Below are positions 4,531-36,891 of a stretch of DNA of 51,197 bases, one piece after another. The DNA comes from a virus. Lineage: Duplodnaviria; Heunggongvirae; Uroviricota; Caudoviricetes. Below the pieces are notes generated by a model that worked only from the letters and a program-made list of their open reading frames with translations, searched no databases and had not been told where the DNA came from. A program made the translations under genes and the position numbers. Position 1 is the stretch's first letter; every line of letters starts with the position of its first letter. The DNA is taken from positions 64,001-115,197 of the IMG/VR virus record IMGVR_UViG_3300005323_000039; one strand, written 5' to 3'.

Positions 4531-4603
4531 TGCGCTCGGAGAGATTCGAACTCTCGCCACCTGCTCGGCAAGCAGATATTCTACCAGACTATATTACGAG
4601 CGC
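4531..4603 (-). tRNA. tRNA-Gly(GCC)
   Basis: Acceptor GCGCTCG/CGAGCGC-A, anticodon arm TCTGC-TTGCCGA-GCAGG, T-arm GAGAG-TTCGAAT-CTCTC; CCA not encoded. Confidence 0.95.
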
Positions 4604-4627
4604 GCCAATTTACGCAAATTCTGTGAA

Positions 4628-4700
4628 TAGTCCTGCGAGGATTCGAACCTCGGTTGCTGAGTTCAAAGCCCAGTGTGATTGACCGCTACACTACAGGACT
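4628..4700 (-). tRNA. tRNA-Gln(TTG), archaeal type
   Basis: AGTCCTG/CAGGACT-A acceptor with A1-U72; anticodon arm CTGGG-CTTTGAA-CTCAG; T-arm CGAGG-TTCGAAT-CCTCG. Confidence 0.95.
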
Positions 4701-4713
4701 AATTGTTGTTAGT

Positions 4714-4929
4714 CTAATCATATAACACGATTGTTTCTACATTATATTTTGATACAAGGATTGTAAATGTCTCAATTGATTTAGTAATAGGATTTTCATA
4801 AGAACGTTCCACGATAAACATATCATGATCATCAATTGTTTTTGACCCTTTGTAAATTCCACATACTTCTTCACCAGATACCAATCCAAAGCAATATGAT
4901 TTTCCCCTTTCTAATTCATCTTTTGTCAT
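4714..4929 (-). CDS. hypothetical protein inside the tRNA cluster
   Basis: 71 aa, GAGGT ribosome-binding site upstream. Confidence 0.6.
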   Translation of the reverse strand: MTKDELERGKSYCFGLVSGEEVCGIYKGSKTIDDHDMFIVERSYENPITKSIETFTILVSKYNVETIVLYD

Positions 4930-4952
4930 GTCGTACCTCTTGTTAAGTTGAA

Positions 4953-5073
4953 AGAGTGGGCCAGATTTGCACTGGTCCGTGTACTTTGTTTTCTACCGTT
5001 TGTTTGAAACAAACGATCTATCACGCCCATGCTGCCTAGCTTTATGGGAATCGAACCCTGGACGCCACCACTC
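4953..5073 (-). ncRNA. tRNA-like RNA (acceptor-like stem and T-arm around a non-tRNA core)
   Basis: GAGTGG/CCACTC closing stem, T-arm CCAG-TGCAAAT-CTGG, internal CCCAT/ATGGG and CGTTTGTT/AACAAACG hairpins; no canonical anticodon arm. Confidence 0.5.
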
Positions 5074-5145
5074 AGCCTTCGTACCACCAGATACAGTCCA
5101 AAAGGGAGCGACCCTTTCATACCTTCGTATCCAATATGTGCGAAA

Positions 5146-5229
5146 TGCCAACAGCAGGGCTCGAACCTGCGACCCTCTACGGGACCAGATCTTGAGTCTG
5201 GCGCGTTCTTCCATCTTCGCTATGTTGGC
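5146..5229 (-). tRNA. tRNA-Leu(CAA)
   Basis: GCCAACA/TGTTGGC-A acceptor, CCAGA-CTCAAGA-TCTGG anticodon arm, long variable arm, T-arm GCAGG-TTCGAGC-CCTGC; BRE-TATA at about 5258-5275. Confidence 0.95.
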
Positions 5230-5239
5230 TTCACTCTAG

Positions 5240-5881
5240 TTATACATATAACGAATCTACTATATATACTTTGTTGTTTTCAATCATAGCGTATCTGAAT
5301 CGCGATTTGCTTACATCCAAAGGATTGTACGGATCTACCATGTACAGATTGCTCAAATCATGACTGGAGTATTTGAATAGGGGTGGAGTGTGGCCACAGA
5401 CTTGCAACAATTTGTCATACGGGGCAGCATGGTTCGGTCTATACCACAGAGGACTGTCGTCGTGCCAATGTTCTATCAGATCCATTCCATTCAGAGTTTT
5501 TACAATTTCTTCGATTGGAGTATCGCTTGGAACAAATGTTTCAGATAAACCAGCGTGCGTTATGAGGACTTGATCATGTATAGCGACTATTTTGAATTCA
5601 TTCTGGCGCTCCTCCAATTCATCGTACAGACTCCAGCTATATGGGTCCTGAGGCCCGATAAATTGTTTTAAGACTATAGCAGCTTCGTGATTGCCCCACA
5701 ACATTTCTGCTCCACTCTGACTCAATAGTTTCCAACACTCTATTGGGTTGCATCCAATATCGATAAAATCTCCAGCAAAAATCAATCTGTCGTTGTGTTT
5801 ATCGTAATGTGAATGTGATAGAACGTTCTGGATGAGGTGAGGTTGAGCGTGTGCATCAGCTAAAACAATACAACGTGCCAT
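5240..5881 (-). CDS. calcineurin-like metallophosphoesterase
   Basis: DAH, GDFID, GNHE, THAG and GHTP motifs. Confidence 0.9.
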   Translation of the reverse strand: MARCIVLADAHAQPHLIQNVLSHSHYDKHNDRLIFAGDFIDIGCNPIECWKLLSQSGAEMLWGNHEAAIVLKQFIGPQDPYSWSLYDELEERQNEFKIVAIHDQVLITHAGLSETFVPSDTPIEEIVKTLNGMDLIEHWHDDSPLWYRPNHAAPYDKLLQVCGHTPPLFKYSSHDLSNLYMVDPYNPLDVSKSRFRYAMIENNKVYIVDSLYV

Positions 5882-5887
5882 CTTAAC

Positions 5888-6136
5888 CTACTCTATAGAC
5901 GTATCGTTTATTGCCTTCAATATGAACGATTCAGGTGCATCTTCTCCGTAAAAATGGACCAATACTTCGTCATCTGCTAACATTTCATCAGATTCGTATA
6001 CGCGAGTGTATCCTCCGTCACGATTTGGTCCTATCAATCTATAGTTAAGATTCTTTCTACCAGTTCGTATTATTTCGACACCATCTGAATTATCAATAAC
6101 ATCTAATTGCTCATCTGTTATTATGTAACGTTCCAT
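5888..6136 (-). CDS. hypothetical protein
   Basis: 82 aa, GGTGA ribosome-binding site, co-oriented with neighbours. Confidence 0.6.
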   Translation of the reverse strand: MERYIITDEQLDVIDNSDGVEIIRTGRKNLNYRLIGPNRDGGYTRVYESDEMLADDEVLVHFYGEDAPESFILKAINDTSIE

Positions 6137-6272
6137 TATTTCACCATGTTATGAATATTTGTTTAAATTTTGATCAACGTTTAATTGGTTTTAACGCCGA
6201 GCCAACTGAACTATACTTAGTACGTTAAATTGATATATATACTTTACGCCACACTTTGAACAACGCTTTGTA

Positions 6273-6297
6273 CTTTACGTCCTTCCGATTATATTGA
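6273..6297. repeat. 25-bp dispersed repeat, copy 2
   Basis: Matches 671-695 at 23/25. Confidence 0.85.
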
Positions 6298-6321
6298 TAC
6301 TAAAAATAAATGGATAGGTTA

Positions 6322-6401
6322 GAACCTTGCCTCACCTCGCCATACCACACCGTATCGAACCTATCCGAACCGAACCCAAACAAACCCAGTCGAACCACAT
6401 C
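6322..6401 (-). ncRNA. stand-alone GGY-NN pentamer array (array A; candidate guide RNA)
   Basis: 16 in-phase 5-nt units, 11 with GGY: gatGT ggtTC gacTG ggtTT gttTG ggtTC ggtTC ggaTA ggtTC gatAC ggtGT ggtAT ggcGA ggtGA ggcAA ggtTC; own promoter and T-tract. Confidence 0.85.
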
Positions 6402-6450
6402 TAATGTGCGTTAAGATATACTCAACGCTAATTCGTAATGGTATTTTTTC

Positions 6451-6466
6451 TATTTATACTTTTCGG
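6451..6466 (-). promoter_or_regulatory. archaeal BRE-TATA promoter for array A
   Basis: CCGAAAAGTATAAATA; no sizeable minus-strand ORF between it and the array. Confidence 0.7.
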
Positions 6467-6476
6467 TGGCAACTAG

Positions 6477-7031
6477 ATGACTCTGATAAAATTGACTGCT
6501 TATAATGCATGGCGTCGTGGATTCATAACCGATGACCAATATGAAGTTTATCTTCAGCAAAATCCAGATCCAGAACAAGAAATTATAATAAATTACGATG
6601 AACATTTGCACGAAGTTTATCTTGCTGACGTACATGTGCTCAAACGAGATCCTAATGCTTATATCGACTTAGTTTTTTCACTTGACGGAGCTGGTGCAGA
6701 AATAGCTGACGCAAAGAAAGCATATGCCAGATGTAACGTTAGTGGTAGGATTATTAAAGCAACTGTTCTAGCGGATCAATCAGGTTCAATCGCAATTGAT
6801 GTCTGGAAGAAGACTACATATCCTCCAGCGGATGGCGAATCAATTACAGCAAGCGCCGTTCCAACAATCACAACCAACGTTAGTTCAGAGGATGCAACAT
6901 TGACAGGCTGGAACGTAATGGTCACAGCTGGAGATTACTTCATTGCTAACGTCGATTCTTGTACAACAATAACACATGCTGAACTCATTCTAACGATTGA
7001 ACCTGCTGTACAATATGTCCGGATCGTTTAG
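6477..7031 (+). CDS. virion protein (N-terminal RRGxIT module plus beta-sandwich)
   Basis: C-terminal domain paralogous to 7046-7864 (ADQSGSI..D.WK...YPP....SITA.AVPTI). Confidence 0.65.
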   Translation: MTLIKLTAYNAWRRGFITDDQYEVYLQQNPDPEQEIIINYDEHLHEVYLADVHVLKRDPNAYIDLVFSLDGAGAEIADAKKAYARCNVSGRIIKATVLADQSGSIAIDVWKKTTYPPADGESITASAVPTITTNVSSEDATLTGWNVMVTAGDYFIANVDSCTTITHAELILTIEPAVQYVRIV

Positions 7032-7045
7032 AGGGAGCGTACTTT

Positions 7046-7864
7046 ATGGCTAACATTAGCGCGATGAGCTTGAGTAGAGGTGACATCCTTACAACTTCTC
7101 ACATTGACTCAATTGCTAGAGGCTCCCAAGATATTGGTGTAAGGGACGGTTGTAATGTTGGAGCGCAAGCAGTTCCTGACATGACCGTCAAACTGGACGC
7201 AGGCAATGTACTAATTGGAGGCGTTCTAAAAGTTGTTGCAGGCAATAACGTTACAATTTCTGCTGCAGACCCTACAAACCCTCGTATCGATATAATCTAT
7301 GTAGATGTGAATGGAGTGGGGCAAGTGTATACTGGAGCAGCGGGAGTTATTGCACCTGTTGGAGAAACGGACTGGAAGAAATTTACTGTACCGTATCCTG
7401 GGGCGACAATACCCACAGGTGTCCCTCTTGCAGAAGTTCATGTTGGAGCGGGAGCAACTTCAATCACCGGAGCGAATGTTAGATCGCTTGCCACCTACGT
7501 TAGAACGTATCGGCGTCAAATCCAAGTCATAATTGACGGAGGTGGAGTTGCCATTGAGACGGGAGTGAAAGCGCGCCTCCACATGGGATACCCTTGTACG
7601 ATTAAGAGTGTGACTATGGGAGCGGACCAATCAGGCTCCATTGTAGTGGACATCTGGAAAGATACGTATGCGAATTACCCCCCAACGGACGCAGATTCGA
7701 TAACAGCAGCAGCAGTTCCAACGATATCCGCGACAAACAAATATCAGAATACTACGTTGGTTGGCTGGACAACGTCCATTACCGCAGACGACTGGCTATT
7801 CTTCAATGTAGATAGTTGTTCGTCGATTACTCAGTGCGTTGTAGACCTCATCGTGGAAACTTAA
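7046..7864 (+). CDS. virion/tail-associated protein
   Basis: AAD..NPRIDII motif and DGGG..I.TG.K...ADQSGSIVVDIWKD domain typical of phage virion proteins. Confidence 0.7.
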   Translation: MANISAMSLSRGDILTTSHIDSIARGSQDIGVRDGCNVGAQAVPDMTVKLDAGNVLIGGVLKVVAGNNVTISAADPTNPRIDIIYVDVNGVGQVYTGAAGVIAPVGETDWKKFTVPYPGATIPTGVPLAEVHVGAGATSITGANVRSLATYVRTYRRQIQVIIDGGGVAIETGVKARLHMGYPCTIKSVTMGADQSGSIVVDIWKDTYANYPPTDADSITAAAVPTISATNKYQNTTLVGWTTSITADDWLFFNVDSCSSITQCVVDLIVET

Positions 7865-10209: not shown

Positions 10210-11826
10210 ATGACAGAAAAGATTTTAAATATTTCTGGACACGACGTATCAATAGACGAAAATTTTTCTAAAATATTAAACGCGTATAATTGGCACGTGT
10301 ATTCTCTTGGTACAGGTAAGAGAAAAGAGTATGCAGTGACAAAAGTTTTTGGCGTTACTGTATATATGCATCGTGTCATAATGGAAGAACATCTTGGTCG
10401 AAAGTTAGATCGTTCCGAAGAAATTGATCATATCGATGGAAATAGTCTAAACAACACAATAAAAAATTTACGTGTGTGTTCGCATAAAGAAAATACTTGC
10501 AACAAAAGTAAATTTTCTACATCGTCGTCAGAATATATGGGTGTTTATTACAATGATGCTTATGATGACCCATATCGTGCAAAAATAATGAAAGATGGAG
10601 AAAACATACACATAGGTGGGTTCAAAACACCAAAAGAAGCTGCCGAAGCTCGCGACATAGCATGCCTTATTCATTTTGGACAATTTGCTTGCCTCAATTT
10701 TGAACATGCACGTTCCGAATATTTACAGAAAATTAACGATGGATACAACCCGATACAACCAGCACGTGAAACAACGAGTAAATATAGGGGAGTTAGTCTG
10801 CAGGAAGGCAAGTGGGTTGCACGTGCAAACAACATTTATTTGGGAGTGTTTGATTCAGAGGAGTCGGCAGCAGCCCAACACGATTTAGCATACTTATATA
10901 TTAATGGAGATGTTAAAGAAGGCTTAAATTTTCCAGATAAAACGCCGCAATACATAAAGATGCTGGCGTCTGGCGTGATTCCTGTTCCAGAAAAACAATT
11001 ACCATCCACTGAATATATTGGTGTATCGTATAATAAGGATGCGTGTAAATTTGCTGCTTATGTTGGTAGCGGCGAAAATCGTGTATATTTGGGAATGTTT
11101 AGCACGGCAAAAGACGCAGCTGAAACACGTGATATGGCTGTAATCAAGCTTGGGATTAAGTCTGTTCTAAATTTTGTATCCAAAGAACGTGAATATAGAG
11201 AGAAATTGCGCAACGGATACAATCCAATACCCATTAAAGTTCCTAAATCTAGTAAATATGTTGGAGTTTGTTATACAGAAGGTTCGGATAAATGGATTGC
11301 GTACACACCCTTACCTAACGGAAAGCGTTTCAATATTGGTGCATTTGAAACAGAAGATGCTGCATATGAAGCATTATGTGACACAGAGAGACGTTTGACA
11401 CAATGGGAATATATCACAGATATTAAGCCACGTTCGAATTATCGTGGCGTCAAGAATCAACCTAACGGAAAATTTAACGCAGGCATTTATCACAATGGCG
11501 TGGATTATTCGTTAGGTTCGTACGTAACACCTGAAGAAGCGGCTCAAACATACGATATAGCAGTAATATATTTAGGTGCTGAACACTGGAAGCTCAACTT
11601 TCCAAACCTCACGAACGAATATCGCGCAAAATTGCAATCAGGCTACGTTCCGATTAAAGAAAAACGCACCAAGTCAAGCAAACACAAAGGCGTATCATAC
11701 CGAAAGGATAAGAAACGGTGGCACGCCTACACTCAAGTCGATGGCAAGCGCAAAAACCTTGGGTACTTTGGAACTGAACAAGAAGCAATCCAAGCATATG
11801 ATAAATATATAACAAACCAAAGTTAA
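10210..11826 (+). CDS. HNH homing endonuclease with six tandem AP2 domains
   Basis: MHRVIM...IDHIDGNSLNN..KNLR HNH; six S.Y.GV...W/F.A...LG.F.T.EEAA..D repeats. Confidence 0.9.
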   Translation: MTEKILNISGHDVSIDENFSKILNAYNWHVYSLGTGKRKEYAVTKVFGVTVYMHRVIMEEHLGRKLDRSEEIDHIDGNSLNNTIKNLRVCSHKENTCNKSKFSTSSSEYMGVYYNDAYDDPYRAKIMKDGENIHIGGFKTPKEAAEARDIACLIHFGQFACLNFEHARSEYLQKINDGYNPIQPARETTSKYRGVSLQEGKWVARANNIYLGVFDSEESAAAQHDLAYLYINGDVKEGLNFPDKTPQYIKMLASGVIPVPEKQLPSTEYIGVSYNKDACKFAAYVGSGENRVYLGMFSTAKDAAETRDMAVIKLGIKSVLNFVSKEREYREKLRNGYNPIPIKVPKSSKYVGVCYTEGSDKWIAYTPLPNGKRFNIGAFETEDAAYEALCDTERRLTQWEYITDIKPRSNYRGVKNQPNGKFNAGIYHNGVDYSLGSYVTPEEAAQTYDIAVIYLGAEHWKLNFPNLTNEYRAKLQSGYVPIKEKRTKSSKHKGVSYRKDKKRWHAYTQVDGKRKNLGYFGTEQEAIQAYDKYITNQS

Positions 11827-17029: not shown

Positions 17030-17155
17030 ATGCAAAAAGTTACCGTGTACCAGGCGTATAGAAGGGGCCTGATAACGCACGAAAAATATTTAGATTACCT
17101 TAAACGGAAAGTAAAAAAAGACACATTTATTGAATTAGAGTTAATGGAGGATTAA
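17030..17155 (+). CDS. 41-aa paralog of the N-terminus of 6477-7031 (missed by ORF track)
   Basis: MQKVTVYQAYRRGLITHEKYLDYL vs KLTAYNAWRRGFITDDQYEVYL; GAGG upstream. Confidence 0.7.
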   Translation: MQKVTVYQAYRRGLITHEKYLDYLKRKVKKDTFIELELMED

Positions 17156-18162
17156 AGGGTTTCGGCACTTTGGCGTAACTCAGTGCAACAAGCTACAACT
17201 TTGTCTAATGGTTTCTCGTACATAGACCACTTGGCAAGGGATTTCTCAGAGTTTGTTATACAAAGGCGATACTTCATACAAACTTTCTCCTTTGGTATTA
17301 ACCATACATGCAAAGGATTTAAATTATCACGATCATCAAACGCGATACACAAGAAATAATCTGCAACATCGCTTTTGTTTATATCAAATGACCAATAATT
17401 ACCTCTATATAATGTAGAACTCTTCACGTCAATTTTAAATCCTTTAGAACATATAAAGTCAAAGCCGGGATTGCAAGGTGGCATTCTCGTTACATGTTCA
17501 AAATATCTAAAAAGAACTCTTTCTGCTATATGAACACCCAGATACATTGAACATTCTTTATTTACATGATGAGGAGTACCGCCATTTGCATAATATATTG
17601 AACGACTGCGTTGTCTGCGACGTTCTGGTGTATCAATACCACCCTTCCACTTCACAACAGGTATATCAAGTTTTGTAGTCCATTTACTTATAGTCCATTG
17701 ATCGACGCCAAGTTCTTCGGCAACTTGAGATGTTGATTTATGACGATTTATACACTGTTCATATAGCCATTCCTTGTCACGATATTTCTTAGAGGCATCG
17801 TTGGAAGTTTCTAACAAGGCGGATTCTGAGATAGTTCTGCGAGGTATGTTGTATTCGTTAAGCCTGTTGTAAACCATATCTATGCTACAATTGTTTTCGA
17901 ATGCAATTACAGAAGCGGATTTCTGTAAAGTTGTGTATTGTTCATATAACAATTCTTTGGTTGGGTTAAACGTAGTATAACTAGACGAATGTTGTATCAA
18001 GGTGGTTTCTGCAGGAGTACGTTTGACAATATCGAGCTGTTTCAACCTCCGATGTATTGGAGTTGCAGAACACTCTAAATCTTTTGCAATACTTTGAACT
18101 GACCGTTTCTGATTAATGTATTGATCAATCAACCAATCGTCGTTTAACAAAATTTTCTTCAT
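17152..18162 (-). CDS. putative homing endonuclease: three HTH repeats plus PD-(D/E)XK domain
   Basis: Three WL.EQY...KS...IA.EL.C repeats; AERVL...GFDFIC..GFKIDVKSS catalytic pattern. Confidence 0.75.
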   Translation of the reverse strand: MKKILLNDDWLIDQYINQKRSVQSIAKDLECSATPIHRRLKQLDIVKRTPAETTLIQHSSSYTTFNPTKELLYEQYTTLQKSASVIAFENNCSIDMVYNRLNEYNIPRRTISESALLETSNDASKKYRDKEWLYEQCINRHKSTSQVAEELGVDQWTISKWTTKLDIPVVKWKGGIDTPERRRQRSRSIYYANGGTPHHVNKECSMYLGVHIAERVLFRYFEHVTRMPPCNPGFDFICSKGFKIDVKSSTLYRGNYWSFDINKSDVADYFLCIAFDDRDNLNPLHVWLIPKEKVCMKYRLCITNSEKSLAKWSMYEKPLDKVVACCTELRQSAETL

Positions 18163-24781: not shown

Positions 24782-24841
24782 ATATCAAATTTCATCGTAT
24801 CCCGACGTATCTGATCCCATCTTATCTAATCAGAACGCATG
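24782..24841 (-). ncRNA. GAT-NN pentamer array C2
   Basis: 12 units, 8 GAT: catGC gttCT gatTA gatAA gatGG gatCA gatAC gtcGG gatAC gatGA aatTT gatAT. Confidence 0.8.
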
Positions 24842-24901
24842 ACTCCACTACTCGGAGTCTAAGTTGGATATGAGGTATGAATTCAATATCCAACACACTG
24901 C

Positions 24902-24966
24902 GCATCGCATCAAATTATATCCCATCTTATCTAATCAAATCACGTTTCATCTCATCTCGTCGCATA
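24902..24966 (-). ncRNA. GAT-NN pentamer array C1
   Basis: 13 units, 9 GAT: tatGC gacGA gatGA gatGA aacGT gatTT gatTA gatAA gatGG gatAT aatTT gatGC gatGC. Confidence 0.8.
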
Positions 24967-24983
24967 AATGTCAAATATTAAAT

Positions 24984-25253
24984 TTATTCCTCGATGATTT
25001 CTCCATACCATTCTTTGGGCGCTTTTGATCGTAACTCACTATAAAAGTTTGTAAGATCGGCACGAATTTGCTTTAATACAACAGATGTCAATTGTTCGAT
25101 AATGCCTGGTATATTATGATCATCTGTTACATGTTCTTCGTATATGTTGGTCAATTCTTCTATTTTGAGACCAATTTCACGCAATTTTGATAATTCATCT
25201 CGACTTATTTCAATACTGGATGTCATTGTAACACCTGAAATATGAGCAATCAA
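24984..25253 (-). CDS. small helical accessory protein of the RAMP operon
   Basis: 89 aa, translationally coupled to 25254-25757. Confidence 0.6.
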   Translation of the reverse strand: MIAHISGVTMTSSIEISRDELSKLREIGLKIEELTNIYEEHVTDDHNIPGIIEQLTSVVLKQIRADLTNFYSELRSKAPKEWYGEIIEE

Positions 25254-25757
25254 TCATTCGAATTTTGGTTTAATTGGTACTGAACTTACACCACTTTCAT
25301 GTCTACCAGACTTAGGAGATCGTAATGAATCGTACATTGTTTTTACAGTTCCAAGCATTCCACGTCTGACAGACAACTGTGCTCTGTCGGATTCCGGCAT
25401 CAAGTGTTCGATTCTGGACGCAATATTGCACGCTCTGAATCCTCTATCAGCGGCTCTGGCTGCCCTTGACCATTTGTTGTTTACGATGATTGTGGCATTT
25501 TTGCCACCAATCAATTCTATGCCATCTCCTTTGTAGCAATGATACTCGATTTCCATTTTGTACAATACACGACGCATTAAATCTTTTCCATCAGTATCCA
25601 TAACGATTTCAGTGTCGTTTTCGATTTGCTTGTACGATAGGAATTTGCCCATAGGCTTATCTGAAAAATATGTATGGAGTTTGACGTATTCCGCTGAAGG
25701 CATACGTCCTTTGCTCGTTTTTGATTTTTTAGATTTGGTCACTTTTTCACCAACCAA
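25254..25757 (-). CDS. basic accessory protein, possible winged-helix DNA binder
   Basis: Overlaps the RAMP gene stop; GKFLSYKQIENDT...LMRRVL..MEIEY.C..G.GIEL pattern. Confidence 0.55.
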   Translation of the reverse strand: MVGEKVTKSKKSKTSKGRMPSAEYVKLHTYFSDKPMGKFLSYKQIENDTEIVMDTDGKDLMRRVLYKMEIEYHCYKGDGIELIGGKNATIIVNNKWSRAARAADRGFRACNIASRIEHLMPESDRAQLSVRRGMLGTVKTMYDSLRSPKSGRHESGVSSVPIKPKFE

Positions 25758-26302
25758 TTAACGTTTTTGACAGAGAATCTTCCGAACCATCCACGTCTTT
25801 CTGGTCGAAACATTCCAATTCCAATAAACATACCACTAGTTTTGAGATGTTCGATGAAAACATCGCGTGTTATGACTTCATCGAATATGTTGTAGCGAAC
25901 TGTACCTTGCCATTTATCCACAACAGGAAAACATCTATATACTCGGGTGCTTCCACCGACCTTACCATCTGCAGGTACATAAAGCCAATTTGGACGCAAT
26001 CCATCCTTTTTCATGGGAAGTACCAGAGGATCTACGACCATTATTGCTGCATCGAACTTCTTCTTGAATGTTTTGTTTCGCTCACCGGGAACCTTCTTGC
26101 TCATGTATCCTGCAGCACCTTTGATCGAATTAGAAAACATTTCGGGTGGTATTATTACATTACCGTCGGAATCGTAGTGTGCACGATCTTGCCAATGAGT
26201 TTGTTCCCACTCTTCGAATGGCTTTGTTGCGTTCCCTGCATATTTTCCAAACTGCAAAGGTGTTGTACCTTCCAACAAACATTCAGCTATTATTTCTATC
26301 AT
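25739..26302 (-). CDS. Cas7/RAMP-like protein 2 (Vipr-like), linked to GAT-NN arrays
   Basis: N-terminal LEGTTPL strand, VIIPPEMFSNSIKGAA helix, C-terminal Gly loop GMFIGIGMFRPERRGWFGRFSV; alignable to 32831-33397. Confidence 0.75.
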   Translation of the reverse strand: MIEIIAECLLEGTTPLQFGKYAGNATKPFEEWEQTHWQDRAHYDSDGNVIIPPEMFSNSIKGAAGYMSKKVPGERNKTFKKKFDAAIMVVDPLVLPMKKDGLRPNWLYVPADGKVGGSTRVYRCFPVVDKWQGTVRYNIFDEVITRDVFIEHLKTSGMFIGIGMFRPERRGWFGRFSVKNVNWLVKK

Positions 26303-26313
26303 GTAAATACCTC

Positions 26314-26388
26314 ATGTCTTGACTCAAATGGTCGTATCGCATCCAATCAAATCCAATTCTATCATATCGCATTTTATATGATCGCATC
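26314..26388 (-). ncRNA. GAT-NN pentamer array D in the leader of RAMP gene 2
   Basis: 12 core units (8 GAT) gatGC gatCA tatAA aatGC gatAT gatAG aatTG gatTT gatTG gatGC gatAC gacCA plus 3 degenerate units ending at the GAGGT ribosome-binding site. Confidence 0.8.
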
Positions 26389-31146: not shown

Positions 31147-31620
31147 ATGTACGTTTATAGTATTTCTAGTGGAGAGGGTGGAGACCTCCTCACAAATATG
31201 TCAATGGGAGCGGGCAGAGTTAGGTGTCACAGCAACTTGGACTTAGTAACCACCCTTACCGGAGATATTGCCATTACTCCAGATGATGTTACAAACTATC
31301 GTCAACGGTTGTTTATGTGGCTAGCGACGCCCAAAGGCGAACGAATTGACCCTTCAGTAGGTTGTTGTTTATACGATTTTTTACATAACAAAGCAACGTC
31401 AACTACAGCGAGAACATTGGAATTGTATCTAGCATCAGACCTAGCAGTTGCATTTCCTGAATTGGATGTTAAGAGTGTACGTTGCAAGCTCTCCAGTGAC
31501 AATAGGACTTTTAGCGTGGACGTCAAATTAGGTGACGAATCATTAACGTTCCTTTTTAGTGATAACGATTTGCTTAATATTAGCTCACAGTTGGCCGAAG
31601 TTTACTCGATTACAGGGTAA
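31147..31620 (+). CDS. baseplate wedge gp25/gpW-like protein
   Basis: RQRLFMWLATPKGERIDPSVGC.L motif. Confidence 0.85.
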   Translation: MYVYSISSGEGGDLLTNMSMGAGRVRCHSNLDLVTTLTGDIAITPDDVTNYRQRLFMWLATPKGERIDPSVGCCLYDFLHNKATSTTARTLELYLASDLAVAFPELDVKSVRCKLSSDNRTFSVDVKLGDESLTFLFSDNDLLNISSQLAEVYSITG

Positions 31621-31637
31621 AAAGTGGAAAAATGGAG

Positions 31638-32015
31638 TTAGTGAGCAACTTGAGCCGCAGCTGCTAATATTTTGTTGATAACAACGTATTCGGGAGCGAG
31701 TATGGCAAGCATTGGGTCGTGTAAAGTTGACCATACAATTGATGCTATAATGGCATATGCAAAAAACGATCCAATGATACCAATGAATATTGCAATTATT
31801 GCAAAATCTCCATCATTTTCGCCTTCTTTCCACAGCCATTGCCACAAATATTTAACGGCAATTAACGTTATGACTAAAGACAAAGCGTTACAAGCAAGAC
31901 TAGCTGCTCCGTCCATTGCTGTGCCTCGAACGGCCACCTCATACGAATAGAGGGAGGCGTTCTGAGCTCCATTCAACAATCCGTTGAGTAATTCTAACTC
32001 CTGAGGATTCAACAT
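31638..32015 (-). CDS. membrane protein
   Basis: Two hydrophobic helices, LLAPEY-like end. Confidence 0.6.
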   Translation of the reverse strand: MLNPQELELLNGLLNGAQNASLYSYEVAVRGTAMDGAASLACNALSLVITLIAVKYLWQWLWKEGENDGDFAIIAIFIGIIGSFFAYAIIASIVWSTLHDPMLAILAPEYVVINKILAAAAQVAH

Positions 32016-32043
32016 ACAATCTACTCCATACTTTGTTTAACAT

Positions 32044-32724
32044 CTAACGATGGCAGTCAACCACGACTAATATGTCATCTGGTCTGCACGTCATGACTAA
32101 CTGGTAAAATTCTGACTGCCATTGTTCTTCTGGCTTGTACTCACCATGATGCCAGTTCTCGTGCCATACTCCACCCTTCAATACAGCGTATGTTGGATGC
32201 ACTTTGGCAGTTCTTTGTGCATACGATTCGCATGTGTCACCTTCCTGAATTCCAGACATGTCGCGAATTGATTGTACGGCTTCGTCAGAGTCGCCATGTC
32301 GTTCGATCATTTCACACCACATATCGTACGATTTGAGACAATCTTCATAGGATCTCTGGAGCATGGAATCCCAATCGATTAGGTCGAATGGAGCAAATGA
32401 ACTCTCTACAACAACCTTTGAAGGTAACTGGTCAATAGCTACTTCATCTGAGCCATTAGACGTCAATTGGAGGTTGCGTAACACTACAACCTTCGTTATA
32501 AAGTATCCACGATATCTGCCGCCTACTTCATACTCTGCCCACTTTCCGTTCGGATTATCGTAATAGATTTCACCATCATCATCCACAATTTTGCAACTTC
32601 TGGAGTCAAGTTTTGCTTCCTCGTTGTCCATGTTTGCTCCAAGTATCTCGAAAGGATGCATAACGTCTTCCAGAGTTTGTGTGCTGCTAGCTGGAATTAT
32701 TACAAGCACTGACGTATGAGTCAT
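32044..32724 (-). CDS. conserved phage protein of unknown function
   Basis: MTH.SVLVI, NPNGKW..Y.VGGR, YAVL..G.W.E, VVVDCH motifs. Confidence 0.75.
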   Translation of the reverse strand: MTHTSVLVIIPASSTQTLEDVMHPFEILGANMDNEEAKLDSRSCKIVDDDGEIYYDNPNGKWAEYEVGGRYRGYFITKVVVLRNLQLTSNGSDEVAIDQLPSKVVVESSFAPFDLIDWDSMLQRSYEDCLKSYDMWCEMIERHGDSDEAVQSIRDMSGIQEGDTCESYAQRTAKVHPTYAVLKGGVWHENWHHGEYKPEEQWQSEFYQLVMTCRPDDILVVVDCHR

Positions 32725-32830
32725 CTGAACACCTACTGCCTCTAATACGTATTAATGCTATTTATAGTTTGTTAAAGTCATAAACAGTTTGACCAAAAGT
32801 TATAAATAATAGAACTACGTTTCAAGTACG

Positions 32831-33397
32831 GTGATTTTGTTGAACACCCTTTCGAAACGTTTTAATGTAGGAATTCGCGGCACGCGCCCTCTTGTCATGC
32901 ATTCAACTCGCGTTATGATGCAAGAGAAATCTGGTCGCGGCGACAGAATGACTGCAGAACAAGAAGTTGAATTATCCTTGTATAAGGATTCATCTGGTAG
33001 TATAGTTGTTCCATCTGAATGCATATTGGCGTGTATGAAAGCTGCAGCAAGTGACTACAAAGTTCCTGGCAAAGGCAAAAAGACATTCAAACAATACACT
33101 GATTCAGGACTCGATATCGAACCAACGATGCCAATTCTTCAATCAGACGGATACGTAACGGATTTGCGTCCTGTTGTCGTACAGAAATCCAGAATTATAA
33201 GAGCTCGCCCCAAATTCGAAAATTGGTCTGTGGAATTTACAATCGTTGTAAATGATTCACTTTGGTTAGACAGCAGTGGTGGTGGCAGAGTTATACGCGA
33301 AATACTGGAATCTGCCGGAAAGTACAAAGGCTTGTTAGAAATGAGACCAAGATTTGGTCGTTTTGAAGTCACAAAATTCGAAGAATCTCCCGACTAA
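32831..33397 (+). CDS. Cas7/RAMP-like protein 1 (Vipr-like), linked to GGY-NN arrays
   Basis: IRGTRPLVMH, LYKDSSG.IVVPSECILACMKAAA, VPGKGKKTFK, RIIRARPKF.NW, AGKYKGLLEMRPRFGRFEV Gly loop; BRE-TATA at about 32792-32808. Confidence 0.8.
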   Translation: MILLNTLSKRFNVGIRGTRPLVMHSTRVMMQEKSGRGDRMTAEQEVELSLYKDSSGSIVVPSECILACMKAAASDYKVPGKGKKTFKQYTDSGLDIEPTMPILQSDGYVTDLRPVVVQKSRIIRARPKFENWSVEFTIVVNDSLWLDSSGGGRVIREILESAGKYKGLLEMRPRFGRFEVTKFEESPD

Positions 33398-33415
33398 AGG
33401 AGATCTAATCATTCT

Positions 33416-33440
33416 GGTTCGGTTTGGTAAGGTATGGCTT
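33416..33440 (+). repeat. short GGY-NN array B0 (5 units)
   Basis: ggtTC ggtTT ggtAA ggtAT ggcTT, 18 nt after the RAMP stop; contains the ATG of the next ORF. Confidence 0.8.
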
Positions 33441-33748
33441 CATTAGTCAGATGTTGTGAACCGACATCTCTAGAATTGATTGTTCGCGAGGCATTGAAGT
33501 CTCGCAACATTCAATTTTTGGAGCAAGTTCCCACGAGGTCTGGATTTGTGTTAGATTTTCTTGTTGGAGAACATCTAGTGATTGAAGTTGACGGTCCTTG
33601 CCATGACAGTAGCAAGAGTCGAAAAAGGGATCGTTTTAGAGATAGAATTTTGCGAAACGAAGGATATAAAGTATACAGAATGAATTATTCCACCATAAAC
33701 AATACTCAAAACTTTAATTCAACGTTAGATTTTATCCTCTCTGCATAA
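33434..33748 (+). CDS. DUF559/Vsr-like (EDxHD-type) endonuclease
   Basis: LE.IV..AL....I.F.EQ...GF.LDFL....LVIEVDGPCH...RD..RD..L...GY.V.R. Confidence 0.85.
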   Translation: MASLVRCCEPTSLELIVREALKSRNIQFLEQVPTRSGFVLDFLVGEHLVIEVDGPCHDSSKSRKRDRFRDRILRNEGYKVYRMNYSTINNTQNFNSTLDFILSA

Positions 33749-33759
33749 GAGAGATATCC

Positions 33760-33846
33760 GGTACGTTGCGGCGTGGTAGGTTGGGGTTTGGTATGGTGAG
33801 GTTCGGTGTGTTTCGGTTCGGTGTGGTAGGGTTTTAATATAACCTT
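33760..33846 (+). ncRNA. GGY-NN pentamer array B with terminal hairpin (candidate guide RNA)
   Basis: 15 units, 12 GGY: ggtAC gttGC ggcGT ggtAG gttGG ggtTT ggtAT ggtGA ggtTC ggtGT gttTC ggtTC ggtGT ggtAG ggtTT; hairpin AGGGTT/AACCTT then T-tract. Confidence 0.88.
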
Positions 33847-33901
33847 CGTTTTCCTTTTTTCTCATATTTATTTCATTCAAATTCATTTAGGAGGATTATT
33901 T

Positions 33902-35320
33902 TTGGACATAAGATCCATCGAAACGATAAAAAATGAATTAAAAAGTTATCAAATGAGTCATCATATACGGCTGAGAGATTACAACCCTCTGAGTGTTTTG
34001 TCAGTTCTCAATGAAACGCTGGCAATACAGATTCAACTACTCGAAGAGTCCATCGATTCTGAAGTTCAATCGATAAATCCGTTGACGGCGACCGGCGAGA
34101 ATCTTGACGCCGTGATAATTGACAGACTACCCGCAGGCAGACAAGCAGGCACTCAAGCGGTCGGAACAATTACCTTCCGACGGAATTTGCCCGCAGCCGC
34201 TGTCGTGACTATTCCTACAGGTACGCAGGCCATCGCACTAGCAGACAACGGAGATTATTTGTGGTTCGAAACAACTGCTGTAGGCTCTATAGGAATAGGC
34301 GATAGTAGTGTTGTAGTGGCTGCACGCTCAATGCGTACAGGATTGAATGGCAACATTCCCGCATATTCTATCACTAGATTACCAGTGAGTATTGATGGCG
34401 TGGATTTTGTGGAAAATATTGCCAGCTATACAGGAGGCACAGATGAAGAATCCGATGATGATTTACGTGCAAGATATATATACGCTGTGCTTGTGCCTGG
34501 CCGAGCCACCCAACAACTGATCGAACAACATCTAACGGATTTGGAAACTGTACTTGAAGCCCACACATATACGCGAGCTCCAGGGGACGTTGAAATTGTT
34601 GTAGACACGACTACAGGCATTGGTTCAACTGATACGGATGTTGCTGCATGTATTGAAGAAAATATTGCGGCGGGAGTAGTTGCACGTGGTGTATTGGGCG
34701 CAAGTATATCTGGCGGAATTAATGTAGAATTGTCCGTATGTGCCGGAGGATTTTTATACGTTAGGCCAACCGTTCATATTCTAGCCGAAGAATCAATGAC
34801 AATAACTTATACAGATCACCTAGCACGGTCGCGTACAGGAACGTGTACTATTCCAGCGGGAACGATTGCAGGAAGTGCTGTAATCGCTACACTACAAGAC
34901 CCGAATGATAGAGTTGTCGAAATAAATGGAATATCCTACGTCGGGACTTCAACATACGATTTGCTCATGGGCATGGGAACATATCCTTGCTTGTACGTCA
35001 CTCCACGCATGGTATCAACAAATGTTACTGTTGCAATTGTTGATACTGCAACGCCAGAAGTTGGTCTTGCTGCTAACATAGAATCCTCTCTAACAGATTT
35101 TCTAGATGCTTATACCATTGGCGAAGATTTAGAGTATAGTGACCTCGTAAAATATATTTTTGTCGATTATGCTACAGGCAGAGCATTTGATGGCATTGAT
35201 CAGATAACTTCATGCGTCGTGACAGGCAACAGCACAACGATAAGTTCGTTCGGCCAGATTATCAATTTGGACGAAGATCAGCGCATCGAGCCTGGCAGCA
35301 TCACGATAACAATAACATAG
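33902..35320 (+). CDS. baseplate J/gp47-like protein
   Basis: ATGENLD, AGTQAVG.ITF, TG..GNIPA, GG.DEESDDDLRARY motifs. Confidence 0.92.
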   Translation: MDIRSIETIKNELKSYQMSHHIRLRDYNPLSVLSVLNETLAIQIQLLEESIDSEVQSINPLTATGENLDAVIIDRLPAGRQAGTQAVGTITFRRNLPAAAVVTIPTGTQAIALADNGDYLWFETTAVGSIGIGDSSVVVAARSMRTGLNGNIPAYSITRLPVSIDGVDFVENIASYTGGTDEESDDDLRARYIYAVLVPGRATQQLIEQHLTDLETVLEAHTYTRAPGDVEIVVDTTTGIGSTDTDVAACIEENIAAGVVARGVLGASISGGINVELSVCAGGFLYVRPTVHILAEESMTITYTDHLARSRTGTCTIPAGTIAGSAVIATLQDPNDRVVEINGISYVGTSTYDLLMGMGTYPCLYVTPRMVSTNVTVAIVDTATPEVGLAANIESSLTDFLDAYTIGEDLEYSDLVKYIFVDYATGRAFDGIDQITSCVVTGNSTTISSFGQIINLDEDQRIEPGSITITIT

Positions 35321-35341: not shown

Positions 35342-35572
35342 TTAGGTCGAATTGAAGCAATCTACGAATCCCGAAATGTAGCTCAACGCATGAGATATTT
35401 CGGCTTTCGTGGGCTTCTTTTCAGACATAATATAAAGCATGCCGTCCTCGTCACAACCTAACTTTAGTGGTCTGTTTTCTACGTTTACCAGAGCGTGGCC
35501 TAACTTTTGACCAACCTTTATTCCCAATGCGTATGGAACAGGCATTTTTGTATCACACGACATCATATTCAA
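35342..35572 (-). CDS. hypothetical protein
   Basis: 76 aa with its own BRE-TATA at 35601-35618. Confidence 0.55.
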   Translation of the reverse strand: MNMMSCDTKMPVPYALGIKVGQKLGHALVNVENRPLKLGCDEDGMLYIMSEKKPTKAEISHALSYISGFVDCFNST

Positions 35573-35586
35573 CCTCTAGTGCTCTA

Positions 35587-35598
35587 TAGTACGTACTA
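35587..35598. promoter_or_regulatory. palindromic operator-like motif TAGTACGTACTA (ACGTACTA half-site also at 3276, 6218, 16150, 45190)
   Basis: Exact ACGTACTA 5-8 nt downstream of a TATA box at five promoters. Confidence 0.65.
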
Positions 35599-35625
35599 GG
35601 TTAAATAAGTTGTGGTCCGATTTAA

Positions 35626-35922
35626 TCATAACTCGTCGTTTGTATCCAAATAGATTAATACTGAGTTCAGAATGTCTCCTACGTCTTTTGGAATTGTTTC
35701 TCTTTTTGCTGGGTCATCAATTGAAGGTATAAATAAAAATCCACCATCTTTACCTCTCCAGCACGTTATGCGTCCCATGGGCTCAGGTGTATAGCCTAAC
35801 TCTTGTAGCATGTATACTATTTCTTGAATGTCTTGTAGCGTGATATTTTTTAGCTTTTCGTGATACCTAGCTTTGGCTCTCCTTTGTTCATCAAATAACC
35901 TGATTATTTCTGGTTGTGACAT
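35626..35922 (-). CDS. hypothetical protein
   Basis: 98 aa in a tightly packed minus-strand block. Confidence 0.6.
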   Translation of the reverse strand: MSQPEIIRLFDEQRRAKARYHEKLKNITLQDIQEIVYMLQELGYTPEPMGRITCWRGKDGGFLFIPSIDDPAKRETIPKDVGDILNSVLIYLDTNDEL

Positions 35923-36182
35923 ACTTTAATCTCCTTTAAATCTTTCGGCAATTCATCTTTAGGTGATGTAAAATATTCAACACCATCGGATGGAATATCC
36001 TTTGCTACGTGCAATCCAACTCCAACCCAAATTAACGATATCAAGTCATACATATGGAATTGGTACGTTCCATTAATCAACCCTTCTATGATCATACCAC
36101 ATAGCAGGATTGATATGAACCATCCTATGCCAAATGCAACGATTGTAAATATCGCGCCTACGTCAACTAGATCATCTAACAT
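35904..36182 (-). CDS. small membrane protein
   Basis: Two hydrophobic segments. Confidence 0.55.
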   Translation of the reverse strand: MLDDLVDVGAIFTIVAFGIGWFISILLCGMIIEGLINGTYQFHMYDLISLIWVGVGLHVAKDIPSDGVEYFTSPKDELPKDLKEIKVCHNQK

Positions 36183-36488
36183 ATGTCCAATTCACCACCT
36201 CTTACAGGGAACACTACATACTCGACGTTATCCTTAGTGACAATACGGAGTTGTTTTATGTTTCCATCATGTGTAAATTCAACACAAGATACTGTTGATC
36301 CGATCAAAGATTTACTTGAAGCATTCATTGTTATTACACTTCCTTGCGATTACAATATATTGAGTGAATTCCCATCACAACGTATCCAGCAAACATTATA
36401 GCTATGCTCCACATAACGCAATTTGCGAGCAAAAAGTATATGCAAGCTCCAGACCATCCCATGTACAGGAGTAATTCGATTAATGTTT

Positions 36489-36689
36489 TTAAGATTTTGT
36501 TGGACATATACGTACAGCACCTGACTTGAAGTTAACGATTATCTTTTCGGGCCACTGAAGGTCTGGATCAGTTTCATCGAGCCCATGAAGGAAGAGTTCA
36601 CCACGATAGACATCATGGTCGAAGCCACAGTGCTCCAAATCCACTAGGTCCATTGTCACAGTCTTAGTTTCTTTATCATACCGTATCAT
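36489..36689 (-). CDS. hypothetical protein
   Basis: 66 aa, coupled to neighbours. Confidence 0.55.
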   Translation of the reverse strand: MIRYDKETKTVTMDLVDLEHCGFDHDVYRGELFLHGLDETDPDLQWPEKIIVNFKSGAVRICPTKS

Positions 36690-36693
36690 GCAA

Positions 36694-36891
36694 TCACTTT
36701 TTCATATCGCTGTTGTTTATTCGCTCAAGGCATACTTCTAACCATCTAATGATTGTGTTTTCCAGAAGGCTCGGATGCATTTCAGGTTGAGTTTGCCTAA
36801 TTTCTTGTATTCTTTGGCGTACTGCTTTGCGCAATGATTCTTTCATCCGTTCCCTTTGTTTGGGAGTAATTGTTATTACAGGTGGCGTCAT
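36694..36891 (-). CDS. hypothetical protein
   Basis: 65 aa, ATGA overlap. Confidence 0.55.
   Translation of the reverse strand: MTPPVITITPKQRERMKESLRKAVRQRIQEIRQTQPEMHPSLLENTIIRWLEVCLERINNSDMKK

Follow-up and report, generated by a model that had tools for sequence, protein, structure and literature searches.

A stand-alone vrRNA-like array beside a phage virion gene and the rival alleles it may be directed against

Why should a virus keep a guide-like repeat beside a virion gene of its own that the repeat partly matches? The question is raised by a stretch of 51,197 nucleotides from the 115,197-bp virus record IMGVR_UViG_3300005323_000039 (Caudoviricetes; positions 64001-115197, the whole of which is called the window here). 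A tract of pentanucleotide units, array A, lies in it between a leftward gene block (an 82-amino-acid open reading frame, a metallophosphoesterase gene, and three tRNA genes) and the start of a rightward block of virion genes. In the published VIPR systems, a vrRNA of 9-16 GGY/NN repeats and a 3' tail is bound by Vipr, a small Cas7-like RAMP protein of ~20 kDa, and the variable dinucleotides (NN) base-pair to double-stranded DNA by a "1-nt skip" code that passes over one base, usually the wobble base (10.64898/2026.04.26.720920). According to the same study, VIPR targets competing phages and satellites, and internal degeneracy of vrRNA repeats is frequent. The decoding rule of an earlier note on this DNA (hereafter the original prediction) is the same as this code. 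As judged from its sequence, array A is a vrRNA gene of the known VIPR system and not a new kind of element. With moderate confidence, it is read here as a solo vrRNA that would act against a sensitive allele of related phages and that is linked to a resistant allele of the same gene.

Array A and the alleles of its neighbouring virion gene

The tandem units of array A have hypervariable NN and fall within the range of 9-16, a Vipr protein is encoded in the same genome (32831-33397), and no self target reaches 80%, the best full-length match in the genome being 21/32. Eleven of the 16 units are perfect GGY units, and each of the other five departs from this motif by one base. Array A is on the opposite strand from vipr1 and does not flank it, and the distance of 26 kb between them makes array A a solo vrRNA, which is a documented sub-class. 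Across the whole virus record, the GGY/NN arrays were array A, array B, and a short piece termed B0, and no others were found.

The NN string of array A on the plus strand was identical on re-derivation to that of the original prediction. It matched codon positions 1-2 of 6582-6613 at 17/22 positions, in frame with gene 6477-7031, with the guide complementary to the coding strand and the wobble position skipped; the match, the orientation, and the skipping had all been claimed before and were reproduced. For the 11-unit substring, no other site of at least 16/22 was present on either strand of the window, and 0.6% of dinucleotide-order shuffles reached 17/22 anywhere in 6402-7031 when all six substrings and both orientations were counted. 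When local matches were scored over the whole 115-kb genome (match +1, mismatch -1), the neighbour site of array A was tied first with two others.

Foreign alleles of the neighbouring gene fitted the guide far better than the resident allele, which stayed below 80%. Only three full-length homologues of the 184-amino-acid protein were found among 5.8 billion proteins, and a search with this protein in viral contigs returned no relative. The guide encodes [IM]TV[DE]Y[DE][DE][HQ][KN][HQ][DE]T over 12 codons, and the resident protein has IIINYDEHLHEV there, both as given in the original prediction; 7/12 of the resident residues are compatible with the guide. The corresponding count was 10/12 for the homologue P0002 (60% amino acid identity, contig L134; IITIDYDEHKYET, footprint ITIDYDEHKYET) and 8/12 for P0003 (58% identity; IVTVDYDAHKYKT, footprint VTVDYDAHKYKT). 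At each position where self and guide disagree, the guide residue was present in at least one homologue, and the resident allele differs non-synonymously from the guide codons (I, I, N, L, and V against T, V, D/E, K/N, and T).

The same difference was seen at the DNA level. In contig L134, which comes from another metagenome, guide A matched the exactly homologous codons at 24/32 positions, compared with 17/32 in self, and over the twelve 5' units the match was 22/24 (92%) compared with 17/24. The runner-up site in this contig scored 17, and none of 20,000 shuffled guides reached the local score of the L134 site. The original prediction had named the lack of any homologue with a better match than self as a ground for its refutation, and the homologue on L134 removes this ground. 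It had also asked whether relatives without array A carry the matching allele. The contig of P0003 has a gap of 38 nucleotides between the upstream gene and the homologue of 6477-7031, which leaves no array upstream of the gene there; other genes lie upstream and synteny is broken. Its allele would match guide A at about 20/24 positions, as inferred from the protein sequence. The earlier suggestion that guides lie beside the gene whose competitor allele they attack therefore gained a better-matched foreign allele, and its second part, homing or marker exclusion, is drawn from the layout alone.

The twelve 5' units of array A (6401 down to 6342) behave as guide, and the four 3' units (6341-6322) matched neither self nor the L134 homologue. 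The putative 3' tails of arrays A and B have GGTTY-TAA..AACCT..T-run in common, as aligned from array A on the minus strand and array B on the plus strand (two copies only). The tail of vrRNA A can pair with the last repeat units, and the hairpin predicted at -9 kcal/mol was not better than those of shuffles. Since the four 3' units match neither allele and can pair, if weakly, with the tail, they may be a handle instead of guide.

Three of the five degenerate units are of the GAY type (GATGT, GACTG, and GATAC), the motif of a second VIPR locus in the window; cross-use by Vipr2 and mere decay are alternative explanations for such units.

The VIPR1 cassette, array B, and other contigs

The second GGY/NN array repeats the pattern at the baseplate J gene. 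The near-cognate site of array B, 34049-34092, was the single best local match of this array in the 115-kb genome; it is in frame, skips the wobble position, and has the guide complementary to the coding strand. Its p-value against full-guide shuffles within ±500 nucleotides was 0.01. Two homologues of the J protein (44-49% identity) agree with guide B at three units where self disagrees, and an eleven-unit target search for array B in viral contigs gave 0 hits. The original prediction had argued that two neighbour hits are harder to explain by chance than one, and this argument holds; with array A tied-best and array B single best, the rough joint chance is about 4e-4. Coordinates of these and other features are collected in Table 1.

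Table 1. Features of the window discussed in the text (positions are those of the window).
Feature	Position	Strand	Remarks
Three tRNA genes (Gly-GCC, Gln-TTG, Leu-CAA)	4531-5229	minus	
Putative 3' tail of vrRNA A	6285-6321	minus	TAACCTATCC, then T-run; alignment of A(-) with B(+)
Array A, solo vrRNA repeat tract	6322-6401	minus	16 units GGY+NN (unit parsing)
Sigma-70-like promoter match upstream of array A	6443-6472	minus	TTGCCA, 18 nt, AAAAAT; 9/12; consensus match only, weak
Neighbouring gene, 184-aa virion structural protein	6477-7031	plus	phrog_35197; phrog_10330; first gene of rightward block
Near-cognate self site of array A	6582-6617	plus	Codons 36-47; 17/24 NN matches; skipped base = wobble
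HNH endonuclease gene	10210-11826	plus	538 aa; within virion/tail gene block
HNH endonuclease gene	17152-18162	minus	Within virion/tail gene block
Second VIPR-like locus	24782-26388	minus	
Three period-5 GAT+NN arrays	26388-26329 (upstream); 24961-24902, 24831-24782 (downstream)	minus	Around vipr2 locus
167-aa gene, no known family	25254-25757	minus	In second VIPR-like locus
vipr2	25739-26302	minus	29-31% identity to Vipr1; phrog_4652
vipr1, 188-aa Cas7/Csm3-like RAMP	32831-33397	plus	phrog_4652; expected protein partner of GGY/NN vrRNAs
Array piece B0	33415-33439	plus	Five GGY+NN units; directly after vipr1, into start codon of DUF559 gene
DUF559 (Vsr-like) endonuclease gene	33434-33748	plus	104 aa; Pfam PF04480, E-value 6e-10; between B0 and array B
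Array B, vrRNA repeat tract	33760-33834	plus	13-15 GGY+NN units
Near-cognate self site of array B	34049-34092	plus	Codons 50-64 of the baseplate J gene (33902-35320); 14/16 across eight units

The AlphaFold model of Vipr1 (AF2) had a pLDDT of 94, and it resembled Csm3/Cas7 backbone subunits (Foldseek E-value 4e-7), including 6ae2_B (VIA Z 11.9, root-mean-square deviation 2.5 over 146 residues). Homologues of Vipr1 were found by tblastn in 129 phage records, and 1,693 relatives had a length of about 180-190 amino acids. In Escherichia phage VpaE1 (Felixounavirus) and Gordonia phage MakoManhole, GGYNN arrays border a segment made up of a Vipr1 homologue and the gene that follows it. A pattern scan of viral contigs yielded 30 array loci that also have a Vipr homologue, and revealed GGTNN arrays of variable NN as a frequent feature of phages, many of them serial and with shared 3' units. 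For example, 8-13 consecutive vrRNA arrays stand beside a Vipr homologue at L044:2217-3406 and also in L032, L053, L059, and L030, and the serial arrays of this group end in the same few units, such as GGTAA GGAAT GGTTT. No VIPR type was assigned because the identity of Vipr1 to comparable phage homologues is only 28-33%.

B0 and array B flank vipr1. The single-copy DUF559 gene starts within B0 and seems to be an insertion in the vrRNA region. In the closest relative of Vipr1 (L138, 55% identity), the array directly follows vipr and there is no DUF559 gene, so the nuclease gene may be a later invader; the two readings of it are an accessory nuclease and a homing-type gene that has moved in. 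The surrounding cassette (31620-33902) consists of a minus-strand membrane protein gene and a phrog_10079 gene, followed by vipr1, B0, the DUF559 gene, and array B. It fills a spacing of 2.3 kb between the gp25-like and baseplate J genes, which abut in three relatives (L135, L136, and L137), and this indicates that the VIPR1 cassette was inserted immediately before the gene that array B nearly matches. In two of these relatives (L136:5222-6136 and L137:5157-6071), a 304-amino-acid protein with all three eRF1 domains is encoded just downstream of baseplate J; the counterpart of this locus in the window (35342-36891) has small minus-strand open reading frames only.

The occurrence of the neighbour pattern in other viruses was assessed with 118 arrays of 9-25 units from fetched viral contigs and the window, for which the best local match within ±500 nucleotides was compared with those of shuffled guides. 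Under a skip of one nucleotide, eight of the 118 arrays had p ≤ 0.01, where about one was expected; under skips of 0, 2, or 3, none did. Among seven top cases that were inspected, five (L023, L028, L030, L076, and L020) had the site in frame in an adjacent open frame, at 66-114 nucleotides from the array and with the last few 3' units unmatched. The near-matches within 500 nucleotides of L028, L030, L076, L020, L050, and L054 were significant under the 1-nt skip only, and that of L054 lies within the vipr gene itself. In L023:380-1330 (IMGVR_UViG_3300028840_000..., 105 kb), two solo arrays that end in four identical units each begin immediately downstream of a gene's stop codon, and each has its best in-frame near-match 66-114 nucleotides upstream in that same preceding gene. 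The self match of the second array was 19/22 over its first 11 units. Its gene encodes a PF24608 protein, and the guide lies over an ECKNQEK motif that a comparison of homologues showed to be invariant and that looks catalytic, which makes targeting of self and non-self inseparable at this site. A search for nine-unit targets of the L023 guide in viral contigs gave 0 hits.

By sequence, the phage may have two VIPR systems that differ in their repeat motif, the second one being the vipr2 locus with its GAT/NN arrays, for which no neighbour match was found. The repeat variants listed in the available portion of 10.64898/2026.04.26.720920 are NNNGG, YNNNG, and NNNNG, not GAT/NN. The gene order of the related P0003 contig includes no equivalent of the HNH gene for the 538-amino-acid product, which suggests active homing-endonuclease traffic in the lineage. 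The products of gene 6477-7031 and of the next gene (7046-7864) have a C-terminal domain in common. Neither a family nor a look-alike was found for the 82-amino-acid open reading frame downstream of array A, Rfam returned the three tRNAs and nothing else on the window, and blastn of 5800-7200 against the phage collection gave no match.

Proposed role of array A and its alternatives

Following the published VIPR mechanism, array A would be transcribed from the minus strand, each GGY would be held by one protomer of a Vipr1 filament, and the exposed NN would pair with one DNA strand with every third base skipped, by which codon positions 1-2 would be read. The sensitive allele of a rival would be bound and, again as in the published mechanism, repressed. 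The present analysis adds that guide A would be kept physically linked to the resistant resident allele; such a linkage would bar self-targeting recombinants and let guide and resistance be inherited together. Array B and the VIPR cassette would act likewise at the baseplate J gene.

Several observations weigh against this role. Virion proteins are shared in a mixed infection, so that silencing the virion gene of a rival brings no obvious benefit. The permutation statistics that the original prediction had called for were favorable in one form (the 0.6% of shuffles in 6402-7031) and, in the stricter test within ±500 nucleotides with full-guide shuffles, gave p = 0.07, which is borderline when taken alone. 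With five of its 16 units off GGY, array A could be decaying. Over all 16 units, the match to L134 amounts to 75%, which is under the 80% target level of the preprints, and no allele with a perfect match or a full-length match of at least 80% to guide A was found in the collections searched. A nine-unit search of viral contigs with array A gave four hits, none of which extended past the forced bases; twelve units with two degenerate positions gave 0 hits in viral contigs, and twelve units with five degenerate positions gave 0 hits in metagenome contigs, a collection evidently without the samples of L134. The limit of twelve guide units is taken from the end point of the match and a weak predicted hairpin. 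The available portion of 10.64898/2026.04.26.720927 places the beginning of DNA engagement near the 3' tail of the vrRNA, exactly where the units of array A are matchless; these units would then lie outside the guide, or else the L134 allele would escape as well. Finally, the two J homologues matched guide B at 13-15/30, no better overall than self at 18/30.

Some of these points would fit an origin of the match by chance and shared codon composition, in which case array A would be a real, though possibly decayed, solo vrRNA with its actual target in a different place, be it in a satellite, in a prophage, or at another VIPR locus. The full-length self match of 17/32 is unremarkable, being below several unrelated sites in the genome, the p-value near the array and the degenerate units point the same way, and no perfect target turned up in any collection. 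Published solo vrRNAs, moreover, target vipr genes, other vrRNAs, and satellites, according to the available text of 10.64898/2026.10.15.759431. Composition cannot, however, account for a match to L134 at exactly homologous codons that 0/20,000 shuffles attained; array B repeats the pattern independently, and the excess of neighbour matches appears under the correct skip rule only. Chance is thus judged an improbable explanation. Autoregulation in cis, in which the vrRNA-Vipr complex would bind the resident neighbour through the partial match and tune or time its expression, is also unlikely, and somewhat the less plausible of these two. The near-cognate sites are in frame in the adjacent gene, the self match is high in some contigs (for instance, the 19/22 over 11 units of the second L023 array), and VIPR represses transcription on either strand (10.64898/2026.04.26.720920). 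A self-regulator should nevertheless fit self best, whereas guide A fits a foreign allele at 22/24 and self at 17/24. The self match of 53-71% is also under the 80% target level of that study, above which no self hits occur and in which disturbed NN pairing abolishes silencing (10.64898/2026.04.26.720920).

A role against rival alleles could also be extended to RNA-guided homing, although this is doubtful. By analogy, vrRNA genes might be homing or allele-exclusion cassettes, in which a guide of ~100 bp sits beside the gene it attacks, linked to a resistant allele, and spreads by gene conversion, possibly with DUF559. Binding of the rival allele would lead to a break or a stalled fork, and repair would copy the guide together with the resistant allele. 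The layout is suggestive: guide A lies 180-250 nucleotides from its site, polymorphism renders the resident allele resistant, the VIPR1 cassette was inserted next to the gene it nearly matches with a small endonuclease gene inside the array, and further HNH endonuclease genes lie within the structural module of this genome. However, evidence of cleavage is absent, and the characterized phage VIPRs are transcriptional repressors that act on either strand, with nucleases in cellular types III and V only (10.64898/2026.04.26.720920). The DUF559 gene, absent from the closest Vipr relative, is possibly an unrelated invader, and array A has no adjacent nuclease. It is scarcely credible that the period-5 GG repeat is not a guide at all and serves as a DNA- or RNA-binding array for another protein, as the first readings of the repeat, from sequence alone, had it; the genome encodes a Vipr homologue, relatives of which are bordered by such arrays in many phages, and the NN string carries sequence information that fits a homologous gene under a single specific skip rule. 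With the Vipr homologue and its array-flanked homologues in view, a TRAP-like RNA-binding array or ring, loading of Rho onto the C-rich strand, G-quadruplex tracts, iterons or partition sites, and TIGR-Tas were dropped as candidates, and a packaging site was disfavored.

If a solo guide against rival alleles is a general arrangement, many unassigned phage vrRNAs would target rival alleles of their neighbouring gene, self-targeting would be averted through linkage to a resistant allele, and the idea of guide RNAs that behave like homing elements would become testable. Homing cassettes, if real, would be a selfish-element lifestyle for guide RNAs, unlike the roles reported to date, in which satellites and prophages are repressed. 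The layout also offers a practical shortcut for target prediction, in which the neighbouring gene is considered before its homologues.

Comparison with known systems

Freestanding homing endonucleases of T-even phages (seg and mob) are small intergenic elements that cause marker exclusion. They act on a site a few hundred bases from their own position, in the neighbouring gene of element-free relatives, and the resident allele is shielded by sequence differences. Recognition is by protein in these elements and would be by RNA here, and cleavage and gene conversion are suggested for array A by analogy only. Class 1 CRISPR-Cas systems are likewise similar in the RAMP fold, in having one protomer per guide repeat, and in periodic unpaired bases; by contrast, the present system has no CRISPR repeats, spacers, Cas1/Cas2, or other cas genes, and its period is 5 with two bases paired rather than 6 with five paired.

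The closest counterpart is VIPR itself, with which array A and its genome share the pentanucleotide GGY/NN in 9-16 units, a small Cas7-like RAMP in the same genome, a one-base skip aligned to the wobble position, the targeting of either strand, a self match below 80%, and a phage-encoded guide aimed at related mobile elements. Array A departs from it by its place beside a virion gene, at a distance of 26 kb from vipr, and by a short 3' tail in which no pseudoknot was evident; a further difference is the DUF559 nuclease gene inside the array of a VIPR system that is borne by a phage. Published solo vrRNAs, which stand apart from vipr, occur in satellites or at a former vipr locus and have vipr genes, other vrRNAs, satellites, and host decoy repeats as targets, according to the available portion of 10.64898/2026.10.15.759431. 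As in these satellites and VIPR-null phages, array A stands alone, and its self match is below the homologous match of a rival, which averts autoimmunity; unlike the solo vrRNAs covered there, it resides in a VIPR-positive phage and has its best match in an allele of the structural gene next door. The words "homing" and "orphan" do not occur in 10.64898/2026.04.26.720920, and neither a guide beside the homologue of its target in a structural gene nor a second, GAT/NN VIPR locus in the same phage was found in the available portions of the 2026 VIPR preprints. As far as these portions extend, the code, the protein, the solo vrRNAs, and a self match lower than the non-self match are already in the preprints. 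The layout adds to this known code a vrRNA no more than a few hundred bases from a sub-threshold, in-frame match that falls in the adjacent gene, both here and in several unrelated viral contigs.
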